Shown here one piece after another: positions 14,154 to 58,607 of a DNA stretch of 64,000 nucleotides (position 1 is the stretch's first letter; the number at the start of each line of letters is the position of its first letter). Made by a program: the position numbers and the translations under genes. Below the pieces are notes generated by a model. That model made no database searches. It saw only the letters and a program-made list of their open reading frames with translations, and had not been told where the DNA came from. Where the stretch lies: positions 51,958,001-52,022,000 of the forward strand of contig CM059432.1 of assembly GCA_030390025.1 (NCBI GenBank). The letters run 5' to 3'. This DNA comes from Squalus acanthias (Eukaryota).

Positions 14154-15413
14154 AGCCTGAATTTTAATCATGAGGCAGATTGGGAGCAGGGCGGGGGAGG
14201 GGGCGCTCGTAAGCGATCAGGAAACCTGGGATTCACGCAGGCCCTGCAGAATTGAATGGCAGAGCCTGATTTGCAAGGGAAACCTCTGTTTCCCACCTGC
14301 AGCCAGCCAGATCGAGAGGCTGGCTGCGGGTGCGTAGGCCTGCGACACTAGGCCGCAGAGAGGAGGGCGGGAGGGATCATGTGGGGGCCAAGGGGTGGCC
14401 AGAGGAGTGGGCAGGGGCTGGGGTCGGAAATGATCAGAGGGCTGGAGGAGTGGGGTTGGGGGGTCTGGAACGATCGGAGGGCCGGAAGAGCCGGTGGTGG
14501 GGGGAACAGTGGGGGTCAGGAACGATCAGAGGGCCGGGTACCATTCTGGTAAACCTATGCTGCACTCCCTTCAAGGCCTAAGGTGTGGTGCCCAGAACTG
14601 CTCACAGTACTCCAGCTGTGGTCTAACCAGGGTTTTGTATAGCTGCAGCATAACTTCTACCCCCTTGTATTCTAGTCCTCTAGATATAAAGGCCAGCATT
14701 CCATTAGCCTTTTTGATTATTTTCTGTTCCTGTTCATGACATTTTAATGATCTATGTACCTGGACCCCCAAGTCTCTTTGGACCTCCACTGTTTTTAGCT
14801 TTTCACCATTTAGAAAGTATCCTGTTCTATCCTTTTTAGGTCCAAAGTGGATGACCTCACATTTGCCTACATTGAAATCCATTTGCCACAGTTTTGCCCA
14901 TTCACTTAATCTATCAATATCTCTTTGTAATTTTATGCTTTCATCTACACTGCCTACAATACCACCTATCTTTGTATCATCGGCAAAGTTGCATATATGG
15001 CTTTCTATGCCATCATCTAAGTCATTAATAAATACTGTGAATAGTTAAGGCTCCAACACAGATCCCTGCAGGACACCACTAGTCACATCCTGCCAATTAG
15101 AGTACCTACCCATTATCCCAGCACTTACCTCCTGGGTCCAGCAGTCCTCGCCTTACTTTAGCTCGCGGATTTCATGAGGCCTGCAAAACCCGACCAGCCA
15201 CTGTAAAATTTAAAATGAAGGTTAAATCTGAGGCACGGCAGCCTCATTATAATATTTAAATGGACGGCCCACTTCCTGGGTGCGAGTTGGCTGCCTGTCT
15301 CGCCTCCGTTAAAAACGGAAGAGGGCAGTTTGAAGGCGGGATCTGGTCGGGATTCAGACTTTTAACACTTTAACCTGACCCCAACCCACCCATTTTTGGG
15401 GGTTAAAACTCGC
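14154..15413. mobile_element. Degenerate GC-rich MITE interrupted by a CR1 fragment
   Basis: Ends agcctgaattttaa / ttaaaactcgca; GC-rich arms lie on both sides of 14541-15120. Confidence 0.5.
14541..15120 (-). mobile_element. Internal CR1 RT fragment without a tail
   Basis: MDFNVGKCEVIHFG...YKTLVRPQLEYCEQFWAPHL and the FADDTK region. Confidence 0.9.
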
Positions 15414-17095: not shown

Positions 17096-17243
17096 TCATA
17101 GAATCATAGAAACTTACAGCACAGAAGGAGGCTATTTGGCCCATCGTGCCTGTGCCGGCTCTTTGAAAGAGCAGTCGTGCTCAGTCCCACAGCCTCACTT
17201 TTTGTCCGTAACCCAGTAATTTCCTCATCCTCAAGTACCTGTC
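17096..17243 (-). mobile_element. 3' tail of the host CR1 (continues 21729-22041 and 24511-26717)
   Basis: tcatagaatcataga tail; aagtacctgtc joins caactccctttt across the Gypsy TSD. Confidence 0.88.
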
Positions 17244-17437
17244 TGTGGTAACACAATACAGCTTCCTGTGACTTGAACTTTATTACATCACTTCCTGTGA
17301 TTAGTCCAGGATAAATACTGGGCTGATCAGTTGGATCCTGGAGAGGCATAGAGTAAGACCTCTTTTGTATGTAGCACCTTTTTAGTTGATTAAAGCTTAC
17401 TTTAAGTTCACCACGCATAAGGCTCATTCTTACGACA
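17244..17437 (+). repeat. 5' LTR of the Gypsy element
   Basis: Identical to 21530-21723 except A17417 vs G21703. ATTAAA at 17389-17394. Confidence 0.97.
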
Positions 17438-17438
17438 A

Positions 17439-17449
17439 TTTAATCAACT
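17439..17449 (+). other. Non-tRNA primer binding site complementary to its own LTR
   Basis: tttaatcaact is the exact reverse complement of agttgattaaa at 17384-17394. There is no TGG next to the LTR. Confidence 0.75.
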
Positions 17450-17515
17450 TTGAAAAACTTCGCACTCAAACTTTTTGGACGAACTCGGAACTAAGGATCC
17501 AGGGAATCACCCATC

Positions 17516-20500
17516 ATGGAAAACATCCTTAAACCATCGCGTCTTGACTTGGACCCAAACACCCCAGCAGCCGGTAAGGTGTGGAAACACTGGTATCGCA
17601 CGTTTGACAATTTTCTCGAATATTGCAAGGCTGATGATGACTCAAAATTGCGGATACTCATCAACTGTGTCACCCCGAATGTATTTCAGTATGTCGAGGA
17701 ATGGGGCAGTTACGAGGAGGCAATTCGGACGCTTAAAAGACTATATACTAAGACACCGAATGAGGTCTATGCCAGACATCTACTAGCTACAGCCCAACAA
17801 GGGCCGGAGGAATCCATTGATAAATTCCTCCAAGAGCTTCGCAGACTTAGTATGGACTGTAACTTTCAGGCGGCCTCAGCTGAGCTGTACCGTGAAGAAA
17901 TGATCCGTGATGCTTTCATCTGCGGGCTTGCCTCCCCATTTATACGCCAGCGTCTACTGGAAAGTAAGACACTTGAGCTTCAGAGAGCTTATGACATGGC
18001 TTGCTCTCTAGATCTGGCAAAAAGAAATGCAGACCTTTATACAGTGCCCGGACCTCGGTCTGCTGCCTTAACTACAGTCAGGCAATTTAAGAGGCCACAG
18101 GTGAACTCTATTAGGGAGGACTTTATCCCTGACGATCAATCTGATGACTTCACTGATGAAGAGGATGATGACCCCACTGTGGCAGCCTCTTGGCAATCTA
18201 AGAAATGCTTCTTTTGTGGTGATGAGTTTCACCCTCGGAAATTCTGCCCTGCTCGCAATGCGTTTTGCAGTCATTGCAACAAAAAGGGTCATTTTGCAAA
18301 GGTTTGCCTATCAAGAGCCTCTACGAGGGCTTATCAAGCTAAGTCCTACCGAACTGCCCCGGTAAGGGCCTATCAAGATGTTCCGGCTAAAATCTATCGT
18401 GCTTCCTCTCGGGTTTTCTCTCGAAGAAACACACCTAGAGTTTCAGCCACTCTTTGTGCAACGACACCAATTACAGCTGCTTGTCCTCAGAACCTATTCC
18501 ATGCAGCTACAAAAGCATCAATTAATGGACATACTTTAGATGCCTTAATTGACTCAGGTAGCACTGATAGTTTCATTAGGGAACAGATTGTTGCAGAGTT
18601 AAAGCTACATGTTTTCCCATCGGACCAGGCAATTGCGATGGCTCAGTCATCACTTAATACCAGAATTTCTGGCTTTTGTATGGTTGAAATAACACTTAAT
18701 GGTCACAGGTATCCCTCCACCCGGCCTTCGGTGCTCAAGGACTTATGTAGTGATCTTATCTTAGGGCTAGATTTTCAAAAGCAGCATAAGAAGCTCACCA
18801 TTGAGTTCGGCGGATCCAAACCTGAACTCACTATTTCTAATATACGACCTCGATTACCGTTCTGTGCATTGTCAGCAGCTTCACTGGATGAACCCTCACT
18901 GTTTACCAGTATCCCTCCTCGATGCAAACTGATTATAACAAAGTCACGACGTTTCAGTCAGGAAGACCAGTCTTTTATTGCGGCTGAGATTTCTCGGCTT
19001 TTAGCAGAGGATATCATCGAGCCTTGTTCGTCGCCATGGCGCGCCCAGGTCGTTATTGTTAAGAACCCTCTACAACCTCACAAGAAACGGCTGTGCATTG
19101 ACTATTCACAGACCATCAATCAATATACGGACTTGGACGCATACCCATTGCCGCGCATCGATGATATGGTTAATAAACTGGCTGAGTACACGGTGTTCTC
19201 AACATATGATCTGAAAAGTGCCTATCATCAGGTACCCTTGAAGGTCTCAGACAAGCAGTATACGGCCTTTGAAGCCAATGGACGGCTGTATCAATTTCGT
19301 CGCCTCCCCTTTGGGGTCACTAATGGAGTGGCTGTCTTCCAGCGAGCAATGGATGACCTGGTCAAACAGGAAGACTTAAAGGATACGTTTCCTTATCTGG
19401 ACAATATTACTGTCGCAGGTCGCAATCAGCGGGAACATGACGCCAATCTCCAACGATTTTGGGATGCACTCCAGCACCGTAATTTGACATTAAATGCGGC
19501 TAAATCCATTGAGTCACAACCAACCATCAACATCCTTGGCTATTGTGTGGGCAATGGCATCATTAAACCTGACCCTGAAAGGCTTCGCCCACTCCAAGAA
19601 CTCCCGCCACCTAAGAATCCGGCCTCCTTGCGCCGGGCCCTCGGCCTGTTTGCATACTATGCTAAATGGATTCCTAACTTCTCGGACCGAATCCAACCTC
19701 TACTGAAGGCCAGCACATTCCCACTAGACACAGCGGCTGTTGCAGCCTTTAACCTCCTGAAAAAACAGTTGGAGAAAGCGGCTCTTCACTCCATCGATGA
19801 GAGTCTTCCTTTTGTTGTTGAGTGTGATGCTTCGGAGGTGGCGATCTCGGCCACTCTGAATCAGGAAGGTCGTCCGGTGGCATTTTTGTCCAGGACTTTT
19901 CAAGCGGCTGAGCTACATTATCCTCCAGTCGAGAAAGAAGCTACAGCCATCATAGAGGCAGTACGGAAGTGGACTCATCTCCTAGCTCGCCAGCACTTTA
20001 CCTTAATCACGGACCAGCGATCGGTCGCCTTCATGCTCGATAATCGAAAACGGACCAAAATTAAAAATAATAAAATCCAGCTTTGGCGGCTGGAATTGGC
20101 CTCTTTTGGTTACACCATCCACTATCGACCTGGCAAGGAGAATGTGGCTCCGGATACCCTCACACGAGCATTCTGCTCCGCCATGGCACCCTCTACGCTC
20201 ATAGACATCCATGATGGGTTGTGTCATCCGGGCGTTACTCGCATGCTACACTTCGTGCGGTCCCGAAATCTCCCATTCTCTACCGGGGATGTAAAGAAGA
20301 TGTGCTCGGACTGCAGAGTCTGTGCGGAATTGAAACCTCGGTTTTTCCGCCCCTCGGGTGGTATACTCATACATGCGACCCAGCCAATGCAACGGCTTAG
20401 CATCGATTTTAAGGGGCCGTTGCCCTCTTCAACTCGCAACACTTATCTATTGACCATGGTCGATGAGTATTCCCGTTTTCCGTTTGCCTTTCCCTGCCCC

Positions 20501-21466
20501 AATATGCTGACGACCACGGTTATCAGCTGCCTTGAGCAGGTATTTGCTTTCTGTGGCATGGCATCCTATGTTTATTCAGATCGGGGCCCTTCTTTTATGT
20601 CAGGAGAACTCAAGGCCTATCTCTCGGAACGGGGTATTGCTGCCAGCAGAACGACGCCTTATCATCCGGTCGGGAATGGGCAAGTCGAGCGTTTTAACGC
20701 TATCATCTGGAATGCGGTACGTCTGGCTTTGAGATCTCGGGGCCTACCCAACCAGCAATGGGAAGCAGTACTTCCAGACGCATTACACTCCACACGGTCC
20801 CTCCTTTCGACCGCCACAAATACGACGCCTCATGAACGGTTCTTCCGATTTCAGCGTCGCTCATCCTATGGGATATCTCTCCCGTCGTGGCTGACTGCAC
20901 CGGGACCAGTGCTACTCCGAAGATATGTTCGGGGGTCTAAGAATGACCCCCTGGTAGATGAGGTTGAGCTCACTGACGTCAACCCTACCTACGCCTATAT
21001 TCGGTATCCTGACGGTCGGGAATCTACCGTGTCATTGCGGGATCTGGCTCCCTGCCCGCCGAAACATAGAGGGACACCAGGGGATGATATTGTACCAGGC
21101 ACATCTCTGGGCTCGCCAGGTGCCTCTCATCACGATCTGGATCTGACGCCGGCTGGTACCTCACTCCAGCGTGCCGACCTGGGGCAGACTGACTATGAGC
21201 CCGTCGGGGCTCGCACGCGCAGCCACGATCCACCCCGTACCATACGCTCGGAAACGGATCTGCCACAGCCCTGCCCGACACCCGTTCGGGCACCAGTACA
21301 CAGTCAGGATCGTCCTGACCCCTCACAGAGCGGGCTGGATCACTCGGACTCTGGTCCACGGCCCGCGGCGGGTAAACGGGCTAGGGGCCCTCTACCGCTA
21401 CGAGAACCCAAACGGGTGCGGCTCTCCCTCGTCCAGCGGCTACGAAATGGAGGGAGAATGTGGTAA
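17516..21466 (+). CDS. Gag-Pol polyprotein, 1316 aa (gag with two CCHC knuckles, protease, RT, RNase H, integrase)
   Basis: Zinc knuckles CFFCGDEFHPRKFC and CSHCNKKGHFAKVC; protease LIDSGST; RT YDLKSAYHQ, LPFG, YLDN; RNase H ECDASE; integrase HDGLCH..CRVC, IDFKGP, SDRG, NGQVERFN. Confidence 0.97.
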   Translation: MENILKPSRLDLDPNTPAAGKVWKHWYRTFDNFLEYCKADDDSKLRILINCVTPNVFQYVEEWGSYEEAIRTLKRLYTKTPNEVYARHLLATAQQGPEESIDKFLQELRRLSMDCNFQAASAELYREEMIRDAFICGLASPFIRQRLLESKTLELQRAYDMACSLDLAKRNADLYTVPGPRSAALTTVRQFKRPQVNSIREDFIPDDQSDDFTDEEDDDPTVAASWQSKKCFFCGDEFHPRKFCPARNAFCSHCNKKGHFAKVCLSRASTRAYQAKSYRTAPVRAYQDVPAKIYRASSRVFSRRNTPRVSATLCATTPITAACPQNLFHAATKASINGHTLDALIDSGSTDSFIREQIVAELKLHVFPSDQAIAMAQSSLNTRISGFCMVEITLNGHRYPSTRPSVLKDLCSDLILGLDFQKQHKKLTIEFGGSKPELTISNIRPRLPFCALSAASLDEPSLFTSIPPRCKLIITKSRRFSQEDQSFIAAEISRLLAEDIIEPCSSPWRAQVVIVKNPLQPHKKRLCIDYSQTINQYTDLDAYPLPRIDDMVNKLAEYTVFSTYDLKSAYHQVPLKVSDKQYTAFEANGRLYQFRRLPFGVTNGVAVFQRAMDDLVKQEDLKDTFPYLDNITVAGRNQREHDANLQRFWDALQHRNLTLNAAKSIESQPTINILGYCVGNGIIKPDPERLRPLQELPPPKNPASLRRALGLFAYYAKWIPNFSDRIQPLLKASTFPLDTAAVAAFNLLKKQLEKAALHSIDESLPFVVECDASEVAISATLNQEGRPVAFLSRTFQAAELHYPPVEKEATAIIEAVRKWTHLLARQHFTLITDQRSVAFMLDNRKRTKIKNNKIQLWRLELASFGYTIHYRPGKENVAPDTLTRAFCSAMAPSTLIDIHDGLCHPGVTRMLHFVRSRNLPFSTGDVKKMCSDCRVCAELKPRFFRPSGGILIHATQPMQRLSIDFKGPLPSSTRNTYLLTMVDEYSRFPFAFPCPNMLTTTVISCLEQVFAFCGMASYVYSDRGPSFMSGELKAYLSERGIAASRTTPYHPVGNGQVERFNAIIWNAVRLALRSRGLPNQQWEAVLPDALHSTRSLLSTATNTTPHERFFRFQRRSSYGISLPSWLTAPGPVLLRRYVRGSKNDPLVDEVELTDVNPTYAYIRYPDGRESTVSLRDLAPCPPKHRGTPGDDIVPGTSLGSPGASHHDLDLTPAGTSLQRADLGQTDYEPVGARTRSHDPPRTIRSETDLPQPCPTPVRAPVHSQDRPDPSQSGLDHSDSGPRPAAGKRARGPLPLREPKRVRLSLVQRLRNGGRMW

Positions 21467-21495
21467 CACAATACAGCTTCCTGTGACTCGAACTT
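21449..21495 (+). repeat. Extra PPT plus first 37 nt of the LTR
   Basis: ggagggagaa followed by tgtggtaacacaatacagcttcctgtgactcgaactt (1 mismatch to the LTR start); contains the ORF stop codon. Confidence 0.9.
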
Positions 21496-21517
21496 CATCC
21501 CAGCCTCCTAATCTTTT

Positions 21518-21529
21518 GGGGGGGGAGAA
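21518..21529 (+). other. Polypurine tract of the Gypsy element
   Basis: ggggggggagaa immediately before the 3' LTR. Confidence 0.9.
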
Positions 21530-21723
21530 TGTGGTAACACAATACAGCTTCCTGTGACTTGAACTTTATTACATCACTTCCTGTGATTAGTCCAGGATAA
21601 ATACTGGGCTGATCAGTTGGATCCTGGAGAGGCATAGAGTAAGACCTCTTTTGTATGTAGCACCTTTTTAGTTGATTAAAGCTTACTTTAAGTTCACCAC
21701 GCGTAAGGCTCATTCTTACGACA
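21530..21723 (+). repeat. 3' LTR of the Gypsy element
   Basis: Direct repeat of 17244-17437. Confidence 0.97.
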
Positions 21724-21728
21724 CTGTC

Positions 21729-22356: not shown

Positions 22357-24512
22357 TCATAGAATCATTGAATGGATACAGCATGGAAGAAGGCCATTCG
22401 GCCCGTCAAGCCTGTGCCGACTCTCAGCTCGTCCCACTCCCCCGCCCTTTCCCTGTAGCCCTGCAATTTTTTTTCCTTTAGATACTTATCCAACTCCCTT
22501 TTGAAAGAAAAGATTGTGTCTGCCTCCACCACCCTTTCAGGCAGTGCATTCCAGATCTTTACCACTCGCTGTGTAAAACATTTTTTCTTATGTCGCCTTT
22601 GGTTCTTTTGCCAATCACCTTAAATCTGTGTCCTCTGGTTCTCGACCCTTCTGCCAATGGGAACAGTTTCTCTCTATCTACCCTGTCCAGACCCCTCATG
22701 ATTTTGAACACTTCTATCAAATCTCCTCTCAATCTTCTCTGCTCCAAGGAGAACAACCCCAGCTTCTCCAGTCTATCAACGTAACTGAAGTCCCTCATTC
22801 CTGGAATCATTCTCATAAATCTTTTCTGCACCCTCTCTAAGGCCTTCACATCCTTGCTAAAGTATGGTGCCCAGAATTGGATACAATACTCCAGTTGGGG
22901 CTGAACCAGTGTTTTATACAGGTTTATCATAATTTCCACACTTTTGTACTCTATACCTCTATTTATGAAGCCCAGGATCCCGTAAGCCTTTTTAACTGCT
23001 TTCTCAACCTGCCCTGCCACCTTCAATGGTTTGTGCACACATAGCCCCAGGTCTCTCTGTTTGTGCACCCCCTTTAGGATTGTACTATTTAGTTTATATT
23101 GCCTCTCCTCATTCTTCCTACCAAAATATATCACTTCACACTTTTCTGCATTAAATTCCATATGCCGCGTTTCCGCCCATTTCATCAGCCTGTCTATGTC
23201 TTCTTGAAGTCTATCACTATCCTCCTCACTGTTCACTATACTTCCAAGCTTTGTGTCATCTGCAAATTTTGAAATTGTGCCTTGTACACCCAAGTCCAAG
23301 TCATTAATATATATCAAGAAAAGCAGTGGTCCTAGAACACAGCCCTGGGGAACACCACTGTATACCTTCCTCCAGTCCTGAAAAACAACCGTTCACCACT
23401 ACTCTCTGTCACTTAGCCAATTTCGTATCCAGGCTGCCACTGTCCCTTTTAGTCCATGGGCTTCAACTTTGCTGGCGAACCTATTACGTGGCACTTTGTC
23501 GAACGCCTTTCGGAAATCCATGTACACTACGTCAACCACATTACCTTCATCAACCCTCTCTGTTACCTCATCAAAAAACTCAATCAAGTTGGTTAAACAC
23601 GATTTGCCTTTAACAAATCTGTGCTGGCTTTCCTTAATTAATCCACCCCTAGCCAAGTGACTGTTGATTTTGTCCCTGATTACTGTTTCTAAAAGCTTCC
23701 CCACTACTGAGGTTAAACTGACTGGCCTGTAGTTGCTGGGTTTATCTTTACACCTTTTATGTTGGCTGCCATTCTATTCTCATATCCTCTCTGCCCCTCT
23801 TATTTTCTTTTTCACTTCTCCTCTGACCTTTCTATATTCAGCCTGATTCTCAGATGTATTTGCAACCTGACATCTGTCATAGGCGCTCTTTTTCTGCTTC
23901 ATCATATTCTCTATCTGTTTCGTCATCCAAGGAGCCCTGACTTTAGTTGCCATTCCCCCTAGTGGGAATGTACCTCAACTGTACCTGAACTATTTCCTCT
24001 TTACAGCCCATTGTTCCACTACAGTTTTGCCTGCCAATCTTTGATTCCAGTTTACTCGGGCCAGATCCGTTCTCATCCCACTAAAATTGGCCTTCCCCCA
24101 GTTAAACATTTTTACTCTAGATTGCTTCCTGCCCCTTTCCATAGCTAATCTAAACCTATGATATTATGATCACTGTTCCCTAAATGTTCACCTACTGACA
24201 CTTGCTCCACTTGACCTACCTCATTCCCCAGAACCAGATCCAGCAATGCCTCCTCCCTCGTCGAGCCGGAAACATACTGATCAAGAAAGTTCTCCTGAAC
24301 ACACTTCAGAAATTCTTCCCCTTCTCTGCCCTTAACACTATTACAATCCCAGTCTATATTAGGATATTTGAAGTCCCCCATTATTACTACTCTATAGTTC
24401 TTGCACCTCTCTGTAATTTCTCTGCAGATTTGCTCCTCCATATCTTTACCACTATTTGGTGGCCTATAGAATACACCTATTAATGTAATGGCACCTCTAT
24501 TATTTCTTAACT
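22357..24512 (-). mobile_element. CR1 LINE (internally deleted) nested in the older CR1
   Basis: APE fragment (GVFYRPPNS, IMGDF, LLDLVLGN), RT ([18 protein letters not shown]), C-terminus and attctatga tail. Confidence 0.9.
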
Positions 24513-26717
24513 CCTCTACAACCTTTCTAAGTCCTTTACATCTTTCCTGAAGTGTGGTGCCCAGAATTGTCCACAATACTCCAGCTGAAGTCTAACCAGT
24601 GATTTATAAAGTTCTAGCATGATCTCTTTGCTTTTATATTCTATTCCTCTATTTATAAACACAAGTAATCCATATGCTTTTTTAACCACCTTGCCCTGCC
24701 ACCTTTAAGAATTTATGTATATGGACACCAAGGTCTCTCTGCCCATCTACACTTTTCAAAATTGTGTCATATAATGTTTATTGTCTTTCTATATTAGTCC
24801 TCCCAAAGTGCATCACTTCACACTCCTTCACATTGAACTCCATCTGCTATGCTTCTGCCCATTTCACCATCCTGTCTGTGTCATCCTGAAGCCTAGAACT
24901 ATCCTCATCACTATCTACGACTTTGCCAAGTTTCATATCATCGGCAAACTTTATAATGTTGCTCCCTACACCCGAGTCTAGGTCATTTATAAAAATTGCA
25001 AAGAGTAATGAACCCAAAACTGACCCTTGGGGAACCATTGCAAACCACCTCCCAGCCTGAAAAACATCCATCCACCACCACCCTTTGCTTCCTGTCATTG
25101 AGCCAATTTTGTATCCATACCGCCACTTTCCCCTTAATTCCATGAGCTTCCATCTTCTTAATAAGCCTCCTGTGTGGCATTTTGTCGAATGCCTTCTGAA
25201 AGTCCATATATACAACATCTACTGCACTACCTTGATCAACCTTCTCTGCTACCTCATCAATGAATTCGATCAAGTTAGTCAGACACAATTTGCCTTTAAC
25301 AAATCCATGCTGGTTCTCCTTGATTAACCCATGCCTTTCCAAATGAAAGTTTATTTTGTCCCTGATAATGGTTTCCAATAACTTCCCCACCACCGATGTT
25401 AGGCTGACTGGCCTGTAGTTTCCTGGTTTATCCCTCTCCCCTTTCTTGAATAGTGGTATAACATTAGCAACCCTTCAGTCCTCTGGCACTACTCCTGTAT
25501 CCAATGAGGATTGAAAGATTGTGACCAATGCCTCTGCTATTTCTACCTTTGCTTCTTTCAGCAACCTAGGATGCATTCCATCTGGACCAGGTAATTTACC
25601 AGCTTTCAGTGATGCTAATCTTTTTAGTATGTCTTCTCTATCTATTACTATCCTGTCCATAACTTCCTTCTCCTCTTTTAGTGTAACCTTCACATCATCC
25701 ATTTCCTTTGTGAAGATAGATGCAAAGTACTCATTTAATACTTTAGCCATGTCCTCTGCCTCGACTTGAAGATTTCCCTTTGGGTCCTTAATAGACCCAA
25801 CATTTTCCCCTAGCTAACCGCATAAAATGTTTTAGGGTTCACTTTAATGGTGCCTGCTAATCTTTTCTCGTAACCTCTCTTTGCCTCCCGTATTAACTTT
25901 TTCAATTCCCTCCTGTACTTTCCATAATCTTCCTGGTTATTTACTGAATCTTGCTCCTGACATTTGCCATAAGCCTCCTTTTACTGTTTTATTTTAACTT
26001 TTATTTTCTTTGTCCTCCAGGGCGCATATGCTTTGAATGTTCTACATTTTCCCTTCAAAGGAATATACCTAGTTTGCACCTGAACTATCTTTTCCCTGAA
26101 TGCCCTCCATTGCTCTGTTACTGCTTTACCCTGCAATCGCCTTTTCCAATCTACCTGTGCTAGGTCCCTTCTTAAATCACTGAAATTAGCTCTTCCCCAG
26201 TGGAGCATTTTTACCTTCGATATTTTCTGGACTCTTTCCATCATTTTTTAAACCAAATTATGGTGTGGTCACTGTTAGCTAGATGATCTACTGTAACACA
26301 CTCCACTTGCCCTACTTCATTTGCCAGAACCAGATCCAATACTGCTCCTTCCTTGTTGGACTGGAGACATATTGATCGAGATAGTTCTGTACACATATCA
26401 GAAATTCCTCTCCTTTCCTACCCTGAGCGCTATGTTTTTCAATCTATATTAGGGTAATTATAGTCTCCGAATATTACTACTCTATTTTTGTTACACGCCT
26501 TTGAAATTACCTCATCCAACTCCTTCTCACTGTTTGGCGCTCTATAAAAAACTCCCAACAATGTAACAGCTCCCCCTCTGTTCCTCAACTCAAGCCAAAT
26601 AGATTCAGTCCAAGAACCATCTAGTTTCTCCTTCCTATTTAGAACTGGAACATCATCCTTAATCAATACTGCCACACCCCTTCCTCTTTTTCCTTCTCTA
26701 TCATTCCTGAATACCAT
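24511..26717 (-). mobile_element. Host CR1, APE to RT part
   Basis: FRNDREGKRGRGVAVLIK, IFGDYNYP, MAKVLNEYFASIFT, DFQKAFDKMPH, KFADDMKL, with multiple frameshifts. Confidence 0.9.
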
Positions 26718-27187: not shown

Positions 27188-29218
27188 GGGGGAGAAATTC
27201 GGTATAGCCCCGTTTAAGGTGCTAATTAGGGCTAGAAATTGGGCTCCTTTGCGCCTCCCATTAGCACCTCCGGGGGGCACTAATGGGGTGCAAATGGGTT
27301 TGCAACCAGGTACAGCGATATCAACGCCTCACGCTAAATTCGGTGGGAGTTTTGCGGCGGCGGTAAGACATTGCGGCCCGATCTCCTGCACCCGGAGATC
27401 GTGACATCATTGCCGTGCGTAGTGCCCCGGTTGCGCCCCGGATGAAAAATTTCCTCTCGCCCCCTGCTTGTGCGCCTGCCGTTAACGACAGGTAGAGGAG
27501 GCGGCTTTCAGTCAGATGTCCGCTGGAGGAGCGCTATTTAAAGGCGTCCACATCCGGTTTAGTTTTCGTCTGCCAACAATGCTGCTTTGTTAATTTCACA
27601 TAGGCAAAGTGGCCTTTTGACCGATTTGCACGTTTTGCATTTCAATGAGTGTTCTGGCACATAAAGATTATTGAGTTTCATTGAGGGGAGATTTGAAAGT
27701 GCAATATTTGTATCCTTTGTATCCTTTCATGGGGGCACTGGACCTCGCCCTCCAGTGTCAACATTGGAGGCAACTGAGGCACAGAGAAAGAGTGCAAAAT
27801 GTGGCCAGAGATAGGAGGGCCAACAGGGCTCTCAACAGGAGGATTAACCACCCAGAGTATTCCAGCAGCAGTTCTCCTACATGAATTTCACTGAGGACCA
27901 GTGTGTTAGAAGGCTCTGCTTCAGCAAGGATGTGGTCACAGAGCTCTGCCACCTCCTGCAGCCAGACCTCGAGCCTCAGATCAGGATCACCACGGCTCTC
28001 TCAGTGGCAGTCAAGGTCACCGTCGCCCTCAATTTTTACGCCAGCGGATCATTCCAGTGTGCGACAGGCGACATCTCCAACATCTCCCAGTTTGCCGTCC
28101 ATTGCTCCATCCACCAGGTCACAGATGCTCTGTACAGAAGGAGAAGGGACTACATTTCCTTCCCCATGACCAGAGAGAAACAGCGCGAGCGTGCATGTGG
28201 CTTTGCCAGGATAGCGGGCTCCCCCATGGTTCAGGGCACCATTGACTGCACCCACGTCACTTTGCGGGCACCTCATAACAATTCTGAGATATTCCATAAC
28301 CGCAAAGGCTACCTCTCAGTTAATGTACAATTGGTGTGCGACCACACACAGCGAATCCTCACCATCAAAGCCTGCTATCCTGGCAGCAGCCACGATGCCT
28401 TCAACCTGTGCCAAACTGGTGCACCAGATCTGTTCCAACCACCACATCAAGCTCGCGGCTGGCTGCTGGGAGACAAGGGCTATCCGCTCTCCACCTGGCT
28501 CATGACTCCCCTCCGCAACCTCAACACTTGTGCCCAGCACTCATATAATGACAGCCAGGGAACTTAGGACGCTAACCTCTGAGAGCGGGACGCTACCGGC
28601 AGAGTGATAAAGAAGGTCCTGCGCAGTCCAAACGGCACTCTTTAATCACACAGGCTGCATCCATCTCTTAAAGGGAAGGGCCAATCACGCTGTAGCACCT
28701 CATAGTCATCAGTGGTGTTTTTCAATGTGACCTGGTCGACTGCCATTGCAGCCCCCAGCACTTTCAGAAAGTGCAGCATTTGGAGATGTTTGAGGAAAAG
28801 GTGTAAAAAATTTGCGCAGGCAGCAGACTGGTGTAAGTAATAAATGGTGCAATCACTGAAAGCGCCTTTTTCGCGATGTTCAAGCGACATGGAAGCATTC
28901 CCTTTAATTACCGCTCCTGCAGTGCACTTCCGAGTGCACAACGCCTCCTCTCACTGGCGTTGTAGGCACGAGGCACTAAAGCAGGGGCGAAAGGCAATTT
29001 TGCATCGGGTCCGTTAACGGGGCGTTGCACACGCATTGACGTCACCATGTGAGAGGCGCTAGCGGCCTAGGCGCTAACAGTTAGCGCCAGCGCTAATTCA
29101 CCATTGAAGGTCACGTGCAGCATTGGATTTGCCGCGGCCGGGCGCTAACCCCTTAGCACCCCGTTAGTGCCCCCGCCAGGCACTAACGGGAGTCACTAAC
29201 CTACCAAATTTCGCGGCC
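27188..29218 (+). mobile_element. Internally deleted PIF/Harbinger transposon
   Basis: Ends gggggagaaatt / aatttcgcggcc and exact TSD tat (27185-27187, 29219-29221). Carries a truncated transposase; the Myb-like gene is deleted. Confidence 0.9.
27729..28567 (+). pseudogene. Harbinger (HARBI1-like DDE) transposase, frameshifted and 3'-truncated
   Basis: VKVTVALNFYASGSFQ, GTIDCTHV, NRKGYLSVNVQLVCD, YPGSSHDAF, LLGDKGYPL. Frameshift near 27845; the catalytic Glu region is missing. Confidence 0.92.
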
Positions 29219-32077: not shown

Positions 32078-33104
32078 ACATAAGAACATAAGAAATAGGA
32101 GCTGGAGTAGGCCATTTGGCCCTTTGAGCCTGCTCCGCTATTCAACAAGATCATGGCTGATCTTCCACTTCAACTCCACTATCCCCATATCCCTTAATTC
32201 CCTTAGTTCCCAAAAATTTATCGACCTCTGTCTTGATTATACTCAACGACTGAGCATCCACAGCTCTCTGGGGTAGAGAATTCCAAAGATTCACCAGCCT
32301 CTGAGTAAAGAAAAATCTCCGCATCTCAGTCCTAAATGGCCAACCCCTTATTCTGTGACTGTGACCCCGTGTTCTAGATTCCCCAGCCAGGGAAACATTT
32401 TCCCAGCATTAACCCTGTCAAGCCCCTTAAGAATTTTATACATTTCAATTAGATCACCTCTCATTCTTCTAAATTCTAGGGAATATAGGCCTAGTCTACT
32501 CAATCTCTCCTCATAGGGCAATCCCCTCATCCCAGGAACCAGTCTAGTGAAACTTTGTTGCACTCCCTCTATGGCAAGTATATCTTTCCTTAGGTAAGGA
32601 GACCAGAACTGTACACAGTACTCCAGGTGTGGCCTCACCAATGCCCTGTATAATTGTAGTAAGACTTCTTTACTCTTACACTCTAATCCCTTTGTAACAA
32701 AAGCTAACCTACCATTTGCTTTCTTAATTGCTTGCTGTACCTGTATGTTAACATTCTGTGAGTCATGTACAAGGACACCCAGGTCCCTCTGAGTGCAAAC
32801 ATTTCCCAGTCTCTCACCATTCAAAAAATATTCTGCTTTTTTTTCCCCTACCAAAGTGGATAACTTCACACTTCCCCGCATTGTATTCCATTTGCCATGT
32901 TCTTGCCCACTCAGTCAACCTGTCTATATCTCTCTGTGTCCTCTTCACAGCTTACTTTCCCACCTAACTTTGTATCATCAGCAAACTTGGATACGTTACA
33001 CTCAGTCCCTTCATCTAAGTCATTAATATAGATTGTAAATAGCTGAGGCCCAAGCACTGATCCTTGCGGTACCCCGCTAGTTACAGCCTGCCAAGCTGAA
33101 AAAG
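32078..33104 (-). mobile_element. CR1 family A, 3' part of an element split over 32078-42480
   Basis: [37 protein letters not shown], and the acataagaacataaga tail. Confidence 0.92.
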
Positions 33105-33854
33105 GGAAGATTGGAAAATTATGGCAAGCCTTTCCGCTATCTCCTCCCCCAATTCCCTTAGCAACCTGGGATGCAAGCCAGCTGGACCAGGCGACTTGTC
33201 CACTCTAAGCATACCCAGCCTTTCTAGTACATCCTGTCTATCAATTTTCACCCCTTCCATTGCTTCTAACTTTTCCACTTCTACCGATATTTTGTCAGCA
33301 TCCACCTCCTTAGTAAACACCGATACAAAGTACTCATTGAGTATTCTAGCCTTGCCCTGCGCCTCTAAGCATATATCACCTTCTTTGTTTCTAATAGGCC
33401 CCACCCCGCCTCTTACTACCCGCTTACTGTTTACATGCCGGTAGAAGATTTTTGGGTTCCCTTTTATGTTAACCGCCATTCTACTCTCATATTCTCTCTT
33501 TGCCAATCTTATTTTCATCTTCACATGCCCTCTCAACTTATTGTATTTGGTCTGGTTCTCCCTTGAAGAATTCACCTGACATGTATCATACACCCTCTTT
33601 TTTTGTTTCATCATCTTCTCTATCTCCCTTGTCATCCAAGGAGCCCTTGCTTTGGTTCCCATACTCTTCCCTCTTGTTGGAATGTACCTAGCGTGTACTT
33701 GGAACATCTCCTCCTTAAAGATCACCCATTGTTCCGTTACAGTTTTTCCTGTCAGTCTTTGGTTCCATTTTACCCTGGCTAGATCCTTTCGCATCCCATT
33801 GAAGTTAGCCCTATTCCAGTTTAGAAGTTCCACTCTAGATTGTTCCTTGCTCCT
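33105..33854 (-). mobile_element. Internal fragment of another CR1 subfamily, without a tail
   Basis: KEQSRVELLNWNRANF...NPKIFYRHV...[14 protein letters not shown]...IIFQSS. Confidence 0.85.
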
Positions 33855-34436
33855 CGTCAGGTCCAGGGGATTTGTCGCCACTTAGTCCCATTAACTTCTC
33901 CAGTACTATCGGGAAAAAATAAGTCCCCTGAGCACCTCCCGTTAGTGCCACCAGATGGTGCTGGCACTAACCGTCAGCGGGGCGCTAGAGCAGTATCACC
34001 GGGATGAGACAAATCCAGCGGTGCACGCCAAATCCCACCCCCAGCCTCACCCCCCATAGCGACGGCACTAAGAGTTATTGCCGGGAACGTCAACGCCAGG
34101 TGGATTGTGATGTCAGTGAGTGTGCAATGCTCACTGACTGCCCGATCTGCTAAATTGATTATCGCCACCTACCTTAGCGCCTGGAGTAAACACCGACAGG
34201 GAGAGCTGGCGTGAAGCACCAGGAAGCCGGCTCCAGGGACATTATTTAAAGGGATCATCAGTAATGACTTGCAGCTGTCAGATTAGTGCAGTTTCAGTGG
34301 TTTCTTGTCAGTTTCACATACTCCAACAGTTTCATTCAGTAATTTCAAGGTTCTTTTTTATCGGGAGTCTTGTGGCAACTAAAAAGTAGCTACATTTATT
34401 CCTCAAAGAACCAAACTGCTACACTTGTTAACATTA

Positions 34437-35536
34437 ATGGGGCTGTACTAGCAGTCGGCCTCGCCCTCCACGATCTACGGCTGAGGGAGCAGAGGCAGCG
34501 AGAAAGATTGGATCATGTGCCCAGAGGGAGGAGGATTGCCAGCAGGGCTCTCAGCAGGTGACCTTACCCTCCGAGGGTATTCTGAGAGCACTTTTCCTAC
34601 CTCCAATTAAGTGAGGAGCAGTGTATTAGGAGGCTCCACTTCACCAAGGAGGTGGTCACAGAACTCTGCCACCTCCTGCAACCAGACCTCCAGCCTCAGA
34701 CCAGGGCGACCACGGCACTCCCAGTGGCAGTCAAGGTCACCGTCGCCCTCAATTTCTTCACCAATGCATCCTTCCAGTCTGCAACAGAAGACATAGCCAA
34801 CATCACTGCATCCGGGAGGTCACAGAGGCTCTCTACAGTAGGAGAAGGGATTACATTTCCTTCCCCATCACAAGAGAGAAGCAGATCGAGTGTGCATGTG
34901 GCTTTGCCGGGATAGCAGGATTCCCCATGGTGCAGGGCGCTACTGACTGCACCCACGTGGCACCCACATAGCAATCCTGAGATCTTCCGTAACCGCAAAG
35001 GCTACCACTCACTTAATATGCAGTTGGTGTGCGACCACAGCAAGCGAGTCCTCAATGTCAATGCCCGCTATCCTGGCAGCAGCCATGATGCCATCATCCT
35101 GCGCCAGATTGGTGTGCCCGCACTCTTCCAGCCATCACGTCAAGCTCGCGGCTGGCTGCTCGAAGACAAGGGCTATCCGCTCTCCAGATGGCTCATGACT
35201 CCCCTCCGCAACCCCACCAGGAATATCATCGAGCTGAAGCAACGGTTCCACTGCCTTGACCGCTCGGGAGGAGCCCTCCAGTACTCGGCTGAGTGGGTGT
35301 CCCATTTCATCGTGGTCTGCTGCATGCTCCACAACTTGGCCAGCATGAGGGCCCAGCCCTTGCCACCAGGGATTGCGGGACCACCTCAGGAGGAGGAGGA
35401 GGAGGAGCATGAGGAGGAAGAGGAAGACAAGGAAGACGAGGAGGAGAAGGAACAGGAGCGAGGGAGTAGACAGCTACTCAGTCGGCCTTCCGGAAGGGCG
35501 ATCCATGATCGTCTCATCAGACTGCTGTTCGAATGA
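34437..35536 (+). pseudogene. Harbinger transposase pseudogene
   Basis: VKVTVALNFF, TDCTHV, NARYPGSSHDA, LLEDKGYPL, TRNIIE, LKQRFHCLDRSGG, CCMLHNLA and an acidic tail. Several deletions and stops. Confidence 0.9.
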
Positions 35537-53878: not shown

Positions 53879-56080
53879 ATTGTTCTTTACACAATATCGT
53901 ACATGCAGACCATATTTTAATTTTTTAAACAAAGAAAGGCAGTATTATCTGCAACCACCAAAGCAATCATAACAGTTTTAATCTCGCATCTCTTATTTGC
54001 AAGTGTAGCAATAGAAATTCCGGGAATAAAATTGCTAATCACTTCATTTGTTAACCTGGGATGAGCAAAAATGTGCCACACCAAGTATTAGCACACTTTT
54101 ACCTAAACAGAGAACTGGAACAAATATCTAATCACAGCCTTTTTTGCTGTTGGTGCTGTAATAAAAAAGATTTTGAACAGATCGGTTAACCACACCTCAC
54201 TACGATTTTACAATAATTGCTAAGCCACTGTGCTTTCAAAAACAGAATTCTGATTGATCGTTGTACCTTCTAACTCTGTTAAGTACCGTCAGGCCTTGGA
54301 CACTTATGTGAGATTAAAGCACATGACATTACCAAATCAGACCTATTGATGTCTCATCAGTGCCAATGGACCATTTTGAGCTACTGGATACACTGAAAAT
54401 TTAAAGAAACTCATGTAACTCAAAGAGCCTCCAAGATATACACTATAAAAAGGTTTAATATTTTTAATGTGTTTGAATAGCAGCAGAAAAAGACTTTTTC
54501 TATGCAAACGTACTGGAGAATCAACAATAGGTTATTGAACTAAAGGCAGAATATGGTATTCTGTTCCTTCAGCTGAATATGTTGTACTCAGCTTCCTGGG
54601 GCAGTGTACTGGTTGGTCATCCATTATTGCTTTAATTTTTAATGGAATCAATAGTGTGAATTTTTTTAAAATATATTTAAGTGAGAATTACGTTCATTAT
54701 AAAATTACGGAAGATTCAATCCATTCTCCCCATATACTATTCTACATGAAATACCACTTGTACAGCAAGTATTTTAACTATAAGGGTAGATTTTACAAAT
54801 ATATTTGTTGCAGGCAAAAACATGGACAAGTGACCTTTCAATTCATATTGTGATAAATATATTTGTAATTATCACAGCAGAGAGTGAGGTGGCTATAGAA
54901 ATAGTGGATGCATTAGTTGTCATTTTCCAAAATTCCATAGATTCTGGAACAGTTCCTGCAGATTGGAAGGTAGCAAATACAACCCCACTATTTAAGAAAG
55001 GAGGGAAAGAGAAAATGGGGAAATACAGACCAGTTAGACTGACATCAGTAGTAGGGAAAATGCCAGAATCTATTATTAAGGACGTGATAACAGGGCACTT
55101 AGAAAATAATAATAGGATTGGGTAGAGTCAACACGGATTTATGAAAGGGAAATCGTGTTTGACAAATCTGTTAGAGTTTTTTGAGGTTGTAACTAGCAGA
55201 ATAAATAAGGGGAACCAATGGATGTGGTGTATTTGGATTTTCAGAAGGCATTCGATAAGGTGCCACACAAGAGGTTATTAAACAAAATTAGGGCTCATGG
55301 GATTGGGGGTAATATACTAGCGTGGATTGAGGATTGGTTAACGGACTGAAAACAGACAGTAGGAATAAACAGGTCATTTTCGGGCTGGCAGGCTGTAACT
55401 AGTGAGGTACTGCAAGGATCAGTGCTTGGGCCTCAGCTATTCACAATCTACATCAAAGATTTGGATGAGGGGACCAAATGTAATATATCCAAGTTTGCTG
55501 ATGATACAAAGCTGGGTGGGAATGTAAGTTGTGAGGAGGATGCAAGGAGGCTTCAAGGGGATATAGACAGGCTAAATGAGTGGGCAAGAACATGGCAAAT
55601 GGAATATAATGTGGAGAAATGTGAAGTTATCCAGTTTGGTAGGAAAAATAGAAAAGCAGAGTATTTTTTAAATGGTGAGAGATTGGGAAATGTTGGTGTT
55701 CAGAGGGACCTGAGTGTCCTTGTAGACGAATCACTGAAAGTTAACATGCAGGTACAGCAAGCAATTAGGAAAGCAAATGGTATGTTGGCCTTTATTACAA
55801 GAAGATTTGAGTATAAGAGTAAAGGGGTCTTACTGCAATTATATAGGGCCCTGGTGAGACCACACCTGGAGTATTGTGTCCAGTTCTGGTCTCCTTACCT
55901 AAGGAAGGATATACTTGCCATAGGGGGAGTGCAACGAAGGTTCACCAGACTGGTTCCTGAGATGGGGGGGATTGTCCTATGAGGAGAGATTGAGTAGACT
56001 AGGCCTATATTCTCTAGAGTTTAGAAGAATGAGAGGTGATCTCATTGAAACATACAAAATTCTTACAGGGCTTGACAGGG

Positions 56081-57122
56081 TTGTGGTGGTTGAAGGTCAA
56101 TCATCACAGCCCCCGGACATCATTGCAAGAGTTCCTCAGGGCAGTGTCCTAGGCCCATCCATCTTCAGCTGCTTCATCAATGACCTTCGTGCCAACATAA
56201 GGTCAGAAATGGGGATGTTCGCTGATGACTGCACAGTGTTCAGCGCCATTCACAACTCCTCAGATAATGAAGCAGTCCATGCCCACATGCAACAAGACCT
56301 GGATGACGTTCAGGCCTGGGCTGATAAGTGGCAGGTAACATTCACGCCACAGAAGTGTCAGGCAATGACTATCTCCAACAAGCGAGAGTCTAACCACCGC
56401 CCATTGACATTCAACGGCATTACCATCGCCGAATCCGCCACCATCAACATCCTGGGGGTCACCATTGACCAGAAACTTTACTGGACCAGCCACATAAATG
56501 CTGTGGCAACAAGAGCAGGTCAGAGGCTAAGTATTCTGTGGTGAGTATCTCACCTCCTGACTCCCCAAAGCCTTTCCACCATCTACAAGGCACAAGTAAG
56601 GAGTGTGATGGAATACTCTCCACTTGCCTGGATGAGTGCAGCTCCAACAACACTCAAGAAGCTCGACACCATACAGGACAAAGCAGCCCACTTGATTGGC
56701 ACCCCATCCACCACCTTAAACATTCACTCCCTCCACCACCAGCATACCATGGCTGCAGTGTGTACCATCTACAAGATGCACTGCAGCAACTCGCCAAGGC
56801 TTCTTCAGCAGCACCTCCCAAACCCGTGACCTCTTCCACCTAGAAGGACAAGGGCAGCAGGCGCAAGGGAACACCACCACCTCCAAGTTCCCCTCCAAGT
56901 CACACACCATCCTGACTTGGAAATATATCGCCGATCCTTCATCGTCACTGGGTCAAAATTCTGGAACTCCCTACCTAACAGCATTGTGGGAGTACCTTCA
57001 CCACACGGATTGCAGCGTTTCAAGAAGGCGGCTCACCACCACCTTCGCAAGGGCAATTAGGAATGGGCAATAAATGCTGACCTTGCCAGCGATGCCCACA
57101 TCCCATAAAGAAATGTTTAAAA
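56081..57122 (+). mobile_element. 5'-truncated LINE of a second CR1-clade family
   Basis: [38 protein letters not shown] and an A-rich tail. Confidence 0.88.
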
Positions 57123-57383
57123 AGATGCAGGGAGGATGTTTCCCCTGGCTGGGGAGTCTAGAACCAGGGGACACAGTCTCAGAATAAGGGGTCGGCCATT
57201 TAGGACTGAGATGAGGTGCAATTTCTTCACTCAGACGGTGGTAAATCGTTGGAATTCTCTACCCCAGAGGGCTGTGGAGGCTCAGTCGTTGAGTATATTC
57301 AAGACAGAGAACGATAGATTTTTGAATATTAAGAGAATCATGGGATATGGGGATAGTGCAGGAAAGTGGAGTTGAGGTAGAAG

Positions 57384-58607
57384 GGTAGATGAGGGTAGTG
57401 CATTTGATGTAGTGTATATGGACTTTAGCAAGGCTTTTGATAAGGTTCCACATGGCAGACTGGTCACGAAGTTAAAAGCCCATTGGATCCAGGGCAAAGT
57501 GTCAAGTTGGATTCAAAACTGGCTCGGAGACAGGAAGCAGAGGGTAATGGTTGATGGGTGTTTTTGTGACTGGAAGGCTGTTTCCAGTGGGGTTCCGCAG
57601 GGCTCAGTACTAGGTCCCTTGCTTTTTGTGCTATAAATCAACGATCTAGACTTGAATCTAGGGGGTATGATTAAGAAGTTTACAGATGATACTAAAATTG
57701 GCTGTGTGGTTGATACTGAAGAAGGAAGCTGTAGACTGCAGGAAGATATCAATAAATTGGTCATGTGGGCAGAACAGTGGCAAATGGAATTCAATCCGGA
57801 GAAGTGTGAGGTAATGCATTTGGGGAGGGCTAACAAGGAAAGGGAATACACATTAAATGGTAGGACACTGAGTAGTGTAGAGGAACAAAGGGACCTTGGA
57901 GTGCATGTCCACAGATCCCTGAAGGTAGCAGGCCAAGTAGATAAGGTGGTTAAGAAGGCATACGGAACGCTTGCCTTTATTAGCTGTGGCATAGAATACA
58001 AGAGCAGGGGGGTTATGCTTCAACTGTATAAAACACTAGTTAGGCCTCAGCTAGAGTACTGCGTGCAGTTCTGGACACCACATTACAGGAAAGATGTGAT
58101 TGCACTAGAGAGGGTACAGAGGAGATTTACAAGGATGTTGCCGGGAGTAGAGAATCTTAGCTATGAGGAAAGACTGGATAGGCTGGGTCTGTTTTCCTTG
58201 GAACAGAGGAGGCTGAGGGGAGACCTTATTGAGGTGTATAAAATTATGAGGAGCATAGATAAAGTGGATAGAAAGGACCTATTTCCCTTAGCAGAGGGGT
58301 CAAAAACCAGGGGGCACAGATTTAAAGTACAGTAACTAGAGGAAGGTTTATAGGGGATTTGAGGGGAAATTTCTTCACCCAGAGGGTTGTGGGGGTCTGG
58401 AACTCACTGCCTGAAAGGGTGGTAGAGGCAGGAACCGTAACCACATTTAAAAAGTACTTGGATGTGCACTTGGGATGCTCTAACCTGCAGGGCTACAGAC
58501 CAAGAGCTTGGAAGTGGGATTAGGCTGGTTAGCTCTTTGTTGGCCAGCGCGGACACGATGGGCCGAAATGGCCTCCTTCTGTGCTGTAACTTTCTATGAT
58601 TCTATGA
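57384..58607 (+). mobile_element. 5'-truncated CR1 (family C)
   Basis: [41 protein letters not shown] and a tctatgattctatga tail. Confidence 0.92.

Follow-up and report, generated by a model that had tools for sequence, protein, structure and literature searches.

To our knowledge, self-priming of reverse transcription has been demonstrated only for the fission-yeast element Tf1, and it is predicted for the chromovirus kin of Tf1 and for one plant copia lineage. In Tf1 the first 11 bases anneal to the PBS (primer binding site), with the RNase H cut falling between bases 11 and 12 (PMC7175516, in the part cited), and for Tj1 of S. japonicus self-priming has been proposed from complementarity (PMC4600332, in the section concerned). 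The criterion for self-priming given in the relevant section of PMC6317226 is an LTR-PBS complementarity of at least 10 bp starting 0-5 bp after the LTR, and the same source predicts self-priming for vertebrate sushi elements, Tcn1 and the plant copia TAR lineage; because of the TAR prediction, independent occurrences of self-priming are already in print.

The element described here has 11 complementary base pairs starting at +1. It resembles Tf1 and Tf2 of Schizosaccharomyces pombe, and Tj1, in possessing an 11-nt LTR stretch complementary to the PBS and no tRNA site, but it differs from them in living in animal hosts, in its two-knuckle Mag-like gag and in the RT of its lineage, which mostly reads YLDN; moreover, in this lineage the helix measures 11-19 bp and ends in a poly(A)-signal-like hexamer, and the RNA start and the cut are predictions here. 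With the Tf1/sushi chromoviruses of fungi and vertebrates and with plant Tcn1 it shares the Ty3/gypsy domain order and the LTR-PBS complementarity, but unlike the Tf1/sushi chromoviruses it has no chromodomain. The plant copia TAR lineage (Houba, Osr-1) is similar in being a case of self-priming predicted outside Tf1/sushi, although TAR belongs to the copia superfamily and to plants.

The element and its LTR-PBS duplex

The element lies in a window of 64,000 nucleotides, by which we mean the whole stretch of Squalus acanthias DNA that was analysed. It is a Gypsy LTR retrotransposon occupying 17244-21723, its two 194-bp LTRs differ at 1 of 194 bases, and the features of Ty3/gypsy membership are all present (LTRs, target duplication, polypurine tract and the order protease, RT, RNase H, integrase). 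Its parts are the following:

17239..17243, + strand: target site duplication, left copy CTGTC
17244..17437, + strand: 5' LTR, 194 bp, TG...CA
17310..17317, + strand: TATA-like GATAAATA, 74 nt upstream of the 11-mer, a candidate
17384..17394, + strand: predicted self-primer, 11 nt complementary to the PBS, with a cut predicted after 17394 by analogy with Tf1
17389..17394, + strand: ATTAAA, a poly(A)-signal-like hexamer within the paired stretch
17395..17407, + strand: short hairpin directly 3' of the predicted cut (centroid fold; weak in its own family, clearer in relatives)
17438..17438, + strand: single spacer base between the LTR end and the PBS (1-nt gap in 24 of 25 families)
17439..17449, + strand: self-complementary PBS, no TGG
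17516..21466, + strand: single gag-pol open reading frame of 1316 aa, with two-knuckle gag, protease, RT (YLDN), RNase H and integrase, and neither chromodomain nor env
21449..21495, + strand: extra purine tract and 37-nt copy of the LTR start, containing the stop codon of the reading frame
21518..21529, + strand: polypurine tract
21530..21723, + strand: 3' LTR, which has the 11-mer but no PBS behind it
21724..21728, + strand: target site duplication, right copy CTGTC

The first-pass annotation of this DNA had reported an exact 11-nt complement of the LTR directly behind it in place of a TGG site, with an ATTAAA inside, and both statements are correct: agttgattaaa (17384-17394) is the exact reverse complement of tttaatcaact (17439-17449), the hexamer falls where it had been placed, and the adjoining pairs fail on both sides of the helix (T17383/T17450 and G17395/A17438). 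Past a 3-nt bulge, T17379-17383 would be able to pair with A17453-17457, as read from the sequence. Since the LTR ends with CA at 17437 and the PBS begins at 17439, the site starts 1 nt after the LTR. Of 20,000 shuffles of the LTR by dinucleotide, 4 had an 11-nt complement to a site beginning 0-5 nt behind the LTR. Folding of 17384-17470 gives the helix as the minimum-energy structure, and its mean pair probability is 0.92-0.93 across five assumed 5' ends; taken over its whole length, this fold is of no exceptional stability (z -0.9). The LTR 11-mer is unchanged in 60 of 60 copies of the element's own family, these copies having been chosen by their PBS.

The description of the protein as a two-knuckle Mag-like gag without chromodomain is also borne out. 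The gag possesses two CCHC knuckles and is 25% identical to host Mag-type gag (E 2e-18), and ESM Atlas returned generic gag clusters only. No Pfam chromodomain match was found after the integrase at E values up to 1 in this protein and the five relatives scanned, and the precomputed domains of the 120 homologues listed include no chromodomain.

In the host this is a young family of high copy number: an LTR query gave 898 candidates in the 3.7-Gb genome, and exact matches to the LTR end plus PBS numbered 3247, with three sister families pooled. Some copies stand head to tail at a spacing of about 4.25-4.3 kb (G000:C1:566513-575026 and G000:C4:938041-942653), which suggests tandem elements with common LTRs. 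The second purine tract with its 37-nt copy of the LTR start (21449-21495) lies 71 nt before the real 3' LTR. This feature is inherited, being shared by 6 of 7 further full-length copies (it is missing from L198), and it could supply a second plus-strand start. Concerning the rest of the window, 14571-15044, 22559-25474, 27848-28567, 32348-35536 and 55350-58335 contain what we take, from their motifs, to be fragments of LINE-type RT and Harbinger-like transposase, and the Gypsy element sits inserted within one such presumed LINE-type fragment.

Covariation and placement of the lineage

Homologues of about 1200 aa, with 46-66% identity, were found in shrimp, isopod, crab, nematodes, flukes, tapeworm, sea slug, spider and cnidarians. 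Among 89 non-host loci, 30 had a readable 5' region, 5 were read later, in 2 a gag start was present without a readable PBS, and the remaining 52 were without a gag start. The LTR-PBS duplex was present in 30 of the 30 readable loci and then in 5 of the 5 others, that is in 35/35; the most distant relative (L144, 47% RT identity) has a duplex of 15 bp.

Covariation was evaluated in 25 families, 3 from the host and 22 others, which together possess 18 different PBS 11-mers. The mean number of Watson-Crick pairs was 10.76 of 11 with the family's own LTR versus 8.17 across families, and pairing was perfect in 20/25 own-LTR pairs versus 36/600 cross pairs; the partner stretch was picked by best match, and the cross-family contrast serves as the control for this choice. 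The observed pairing sum was reached by 0 of 100,000 permutations, a count that is not a true probability because the families are related. Several columns of the helix show three or four pair types. Compensatory change between PBS and LTR across related families, which had been proposed as a check, is therefore what these families display. At the level of sequence this demonstrates that the LTR and the PBS pair; covariation proves pairing, not priming.

The register of the helix is fixed, the PBS starting 1 nt after the CA in 24/25 families; a second LTR copy was available for 20/33 loci and fixed the LTR end in 19 of them. A normal tRNA site in a relative would count against self-priming, and no tRNA-type PBS was seen in any relative with a readable site. 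One locus (L076) had been considered a TGG counter-example and was rejected, its helix partner lying at the opposite end of that contig. In several families an ATG follows 14-18 nt after the PBS start, which leaves no room there for a second site of the tRNA type. As a control, 3/3 host Mag-type elements carry TGGCG sites, with a self-complement of 4-7 nt only. Across the lineage the helix is 11-19 bp long, spans a short range (22-69 nt) and extends 1-7 nt beyond a conserved AG in 19/25 families, so that "11 nt from +1" is not a general rule. The feature belongs to a whole animal Gypsy lineage, with one reading frame of about 1200 aa and 5-bp target duplications, and not to a single copy.

In a tree of RT-RNase H sequences with 28 rows, the element and 22 relatives are separated from five host Mag-type rows by a branch of 100/100. 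The tree was midpoint-rooted with no third lineage, which leaves room for a sister relation to Mag, and 7 of the 35 loci were left out of it (6 with fewer than 250 RT residues, 1 with no match). RT-RNase H is 28-32% identical to that of the host elements, which we take to be of Mag type from their motifs. The phylogenetic comparison with Mag suggested by the first-pass annotation thus gave a separate branch, and its proposal of self-priming in a Gypsy lineage apart from Mag is supported by this branch together with the covariation. The Mag lineage (A, B and C clades) is similar in its gag, its two CCHC knuckles and its short LTRs; however, the host Mag-type elements are on the separate RT branch and have TGG sites. 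RT motif C reads YLDN rather than YXDD in most relatives and YLDD in a minority (L067, L076, L091, L108, L129, L136, L144); no paper with the YLDN motif was found in our literature search.

Some chromoviruses are without a chromodomain, and its absence consequently lowers the probability of chromovirus membership without excluding it. The statement that the element is not a chromovirus is based on the missing chromodomain and on the gag type, that is on domain content and not on a tree: a search for chromodomains in the host gave 16 loci, none of them near a retroelement pol, and three scans of viral contigs for a Tf1/sushi reference gave no matches. Cigr-1 of Ciona has 245-bp LTRs, one reading frame of about 1210 aa and a SURL/Tgr1-like gag, features which presumably fit the lineage of the element, so that we take Cigr-1 as a candidate relative by description only. 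Cigr-1 and MolGy clades have been found in molluscs and annelids (PMC6238403 and PMC8556966, in the parts cited).

Two other clades were considered and rejected. The CsRn1 clade is described, in the part of PMC2582038 concerned, with a CHCC gag motif, a tRNA-Trp PBS and a 4-bp duplication, while the present lineage has CCHC twice, no TGG and a 5-bp duplication. Saci-2/lennie elements have a 4-bp duplication, a reading frame of about 1400 aa and a tRNA PBS (PMC12471100, Tables S1-S2, and PMC4558846, in the parts cited) and were rejected by the 5-bp duplications, the size of the reading frame and accession, none of the three Spirometra homologues found here being among the Saci2 accessions in the cited part of Table S1 of PMC12471100. 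Some contigs deposited under bacterial or archaeal metagenome-assembled genomes (L141-L149; P0046, P0230) also contain animal-type Gypsy elements, and these contigs are most likely eukaryotic contamination.

The source of the primer

The reading that we prefer, to which we give a probability of roughly 0.8, is that a chromodomain-less lineage distinct from host Mag would prime its reverse transcription in the manner of Tf1. The 5' part of the genomic RNA would fold back so that 17384-17394 pairs with the PBS; a cut, probably the work of the element's own RNase H as in Tf1, would fall immediately 3' of the helix and next to a small conserved hairpin; and the freed 3'-OH would be extended through the spacer base, U5 and the remainder of R. 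Later the plus strand would copy the primer, and the PBS would be rewritten from the LTR in every cycle. Such rewriting would keep LTR and PBS in step, and it fits the paired changes seen within families.

These paired changes take several forms. Two related loci (L073 and L080) differ by one change on each arm of the helix, one host copy (L267) has both arms changed, and in two others (L266 and L053) the PBS is altered to give a G-U pair. In the element's own family, 10/60 copies carry an additional base in front of the 11-mer, matched by an additional complementary base behind the PBS. In L121 the PBS matches the 3' LTR over 16 nt and the 5' LTR is decayed. Changes of both arms in lock-step are expected if the primer is copied into the PBS every cycle.

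Two further observations concern the paired stretch. A sister-family copy (L036 / L206; G000:C1956, 5' LTR end) has a deletion that runs from immediately ahead of the 11-mer to where the PBS starts and coincides nearly exactly with the fold-back loop. A-to-G changes recur inside the paired stretch (L045, L203, L281 in the 5' LTR, and L220), in three cases in the 5' LTR only, and, speculatively, they might come from editing of double-stranded RNA.

Behind the predicted cut comes a conserved R-C-C-T, whose four bases close a short hairpin in 14/25 families; the shuffled mean was 3.5, and 0 of 5000 shuffles gave as many. The base just past the helix is variable in two host families. In one host family (n=32) position +14 is the most variable of the first 45, with a heterozygosity of 0.43 versus a mean of 0.034, and in a second (n=24, one a false match) the most variable of the first 45 are indels at +12/13. 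A variable base past the helix is what one would expect if plus-strand synthesis ran off the end of a short primer. The sign is not uniform: in the element's own family the variable site, +14/+15, lies past the helix by 2-3 nt, and the L062 family, which was left out of this argument, has its variable +14 within a 19-bp helix.

As for the 5' end of the RNA, it probably lies at the helix or a few bases upstream, the indirect signs being mixed. Identity among three host families begins abruptly at the conserved AG, which points to a start at or just before the helix, and in one contig from a related subfamily the divergence sets in exactly ahead of 17384. The variable base past the helix in two host families points the same way, whereas its place 2-3 nt further on in the element's own family counts against this start. 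The AG itself, at -11/-10, has A in 20/25 and G in 24/25 families and is preceded by a T-rich tract. The "taaga" to which the first-pass annotation attached promoter value is located about 30 nt upstream as described (17354), but the promoter argument is weak: it is not a TATA box, and the TATA-like GATAAATA is 74 nt upstream. No TATA box at -30 was seen in the 25 families. The host sister families carry TATAAATA about 85 nt upstream, which points to a start further upstream. In host family B (copies L031-L060, L216-L245 and L341-L359), counting from the LTR end, position -64 has three common bases and is discordant between the LTRs in 8/14 elements compared, and -116/-117, about 27 nt after TATAAATA, is variable; these variable, LTR-discordant sites could be footprints of RNA 5' ends further upstream. 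The -64 site was also considered as a marker of trans-priming and rejected, being discordant in 4/10 normal copies as well. It should be kept in mind that self-priming needs a cut and not a particular cap site, and the position of the start therefore bears on the likeness to Tf1 more than on the mechanism. Four relatives (L067, L076, L144, L146) have strong acceptor-like sites, a pyrimidine tract followed by CAG, 3-35 nt upstream of the helix, and in these cis- or trans-splicing could shape the RNA 5' end.

Not every copy has a perfect helix. Five host copies have two PBS mismatches in common, with a duplex of -6.0 versus -12.4 kcal/mol; two of the five are duplicates, leaving four insertions, three of which have their own verified target duplications. 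Since such copies exist, perfect pairing in cis is not required for insertion. A U5 marker is present in the 5' LTR and missing from the 3' LTR in 4/4 of these insertions versus 0/9 readable normal copies (for 9/19 copies no usable 3' LTR was obtained), a sign that comes from four insertions, one of them possibly chimeric, and from controls having the majority allele. Both U5 copies normally come from one template, and the mismatched copies consequently look like passengers completed from the strong-stop DNA of a partner; on this small sample they look as if primed in trans on partner RNA. Alternatively they could be recombinants, or a sign that perfect pairing is dispensable. An earlier idea that only 5' LTRs have the U5 marker proved wrong: it is present at 287 LTR ends, and 29 of 30 sampled are without a PBS behind them.

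These copies bear on a first alternative, namely that a primer of the same sequence comes from elsewhere (the 3' copy of R, a co-packaged RNA or solo-LTR transcripts) and that priming is mostly in trans, with no need for the opening bases of the RNA being copied. The 3' LTR does have the identical 11-mer, solo LTRs are common, as the marker-bearing LTR ends indicate, and the mismatched copies seem to have used partner RNA; however, the partner's contribution that they suggest is strong-stop DNA and not a free primer. Moreover, the cis helix is short-range and of high pair probability, and the conserved hairpin beside the cut fits a fold in cis. We consider mostly trans priming unlikely.

A second alternative, which we judge rather improbable, is that the helix only hides the poly(A) signal of the 5' LTR against premature termination and that some other primer is used. 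The HIV-1 poly(A) hairpin is a precedent for hiding a 5' poly(A) signal. The PBS arm is found only at the 5' end of the RNA, and a TATA-like box 74-85 nt upstream would put such a distance between cap and signal that masking would be needed. In this copy ATTAAA lies in the helix, and AATAAA or ATTAAA forms the last six bases of the paired stretch in 15/25 families; but the other 10/25 have a non-canonical hexamer and still keep the helix, which is why masking cannot be its sole purpose. Masking, furthermore, needs no register fixed 1 nt after the LTR, and it leaves no primer site, there being no TGG and, in several families, an ATG so close behind. Concealment of the 5' signal by the duplex, as had been suggested from this locus, is thus plausible here and weak as a general role, and we regard it as a side benefit at most.

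Third, a fragment of a host tRNA or another small RNA could be the primer, the match to the LTR being incidental. Half-tRNA priming is described for copia lineages (PMC6317226, in the section concerned), and one 11-mer recurs in 6/25 families from different hosts. Against this, there are 18 different 11-mers and each tracks its own LTR, and the end of the primer would be TAAA, not CCA. A genome-wide search for the 11-mer with a T-arm pattern gave 4 matches, two of them LTRs, versus 11 for the control, and ARAGORN called none of them a tRNA. The comparison with host tRNAs that had been recommended at the outset covered 33 distinct sequences of 4 isotypes, and the longest match to the 11-mer was 7 nt. 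This origin of the primer appears highly improbable. Finally, the primer could be a product of splicing, with the conserved pyrimidine-AG that stands just within the helix as acceptor; the T-rich tract and a donor-like GTAAGA at 17353-17358 might recall this. The idea is hardly credible and was rejected because in 19/25 families the helix does not stop at the AG but extends into what would be the intron; the intron would here be about 33 nt, splicing would shorten the match, and no joints were seen in four contig sets, a weak test.

Earlier reports and meaning of the finding

Self-priming of the Tf1 kind thus remains our preferred reading, and the element behaves like Tf1 in every sequence test that was run; membership of the Tf1/sushi group is not thereby established. 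We found no report of self-priming in a non-chromovirus animal Gypsy lineage in the literature searched, most subscription journals and Repbase Reports lying outside that search. Kapitonov and Jurka are said to have described, in Repbase Reports of about 2006-2007, self-primed Gypsy elements present in the genomes of the frog and the starlet sea anemone, and a prior report is therefore quite possible. Relatives of our element are present in cnidarians; the Repbase entries may concern sushi-type elements instead of this lineage.

A wider interpretation can be offered tentatively, and we are inclined to doubt that it holds in full. An animal-wide, non-chromovirus Gypsy lineage, present in cnidarians, flatworms, nematodes, molluscs, arthropods and the host vertebrate, may have evolved self-priming independently and without being reported. 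The cut that frees the primer would fall where helix and hairpin meet, a conserved junction right behind the poly(A) hexamer, one fold both silencing the 5' signal and yielding the primer, and the variation among copies would record run-off, rewriting of the PBS and trans-priming of PBS-defective passengers.

If a large and currently young animal lineage does prime itself, reviews understate how widely independence from tRNA has arisen or been retained. An annotation tool that insists on a tRNA PBS would overlook such elements or score them wrongly, and self-primed elements would presumably evade silencing by 3' tRNA fragments directed at the PBS. Natural variants among the more than 3,000 copies of one genome would allow the steps of priming to be read from sequence alone.
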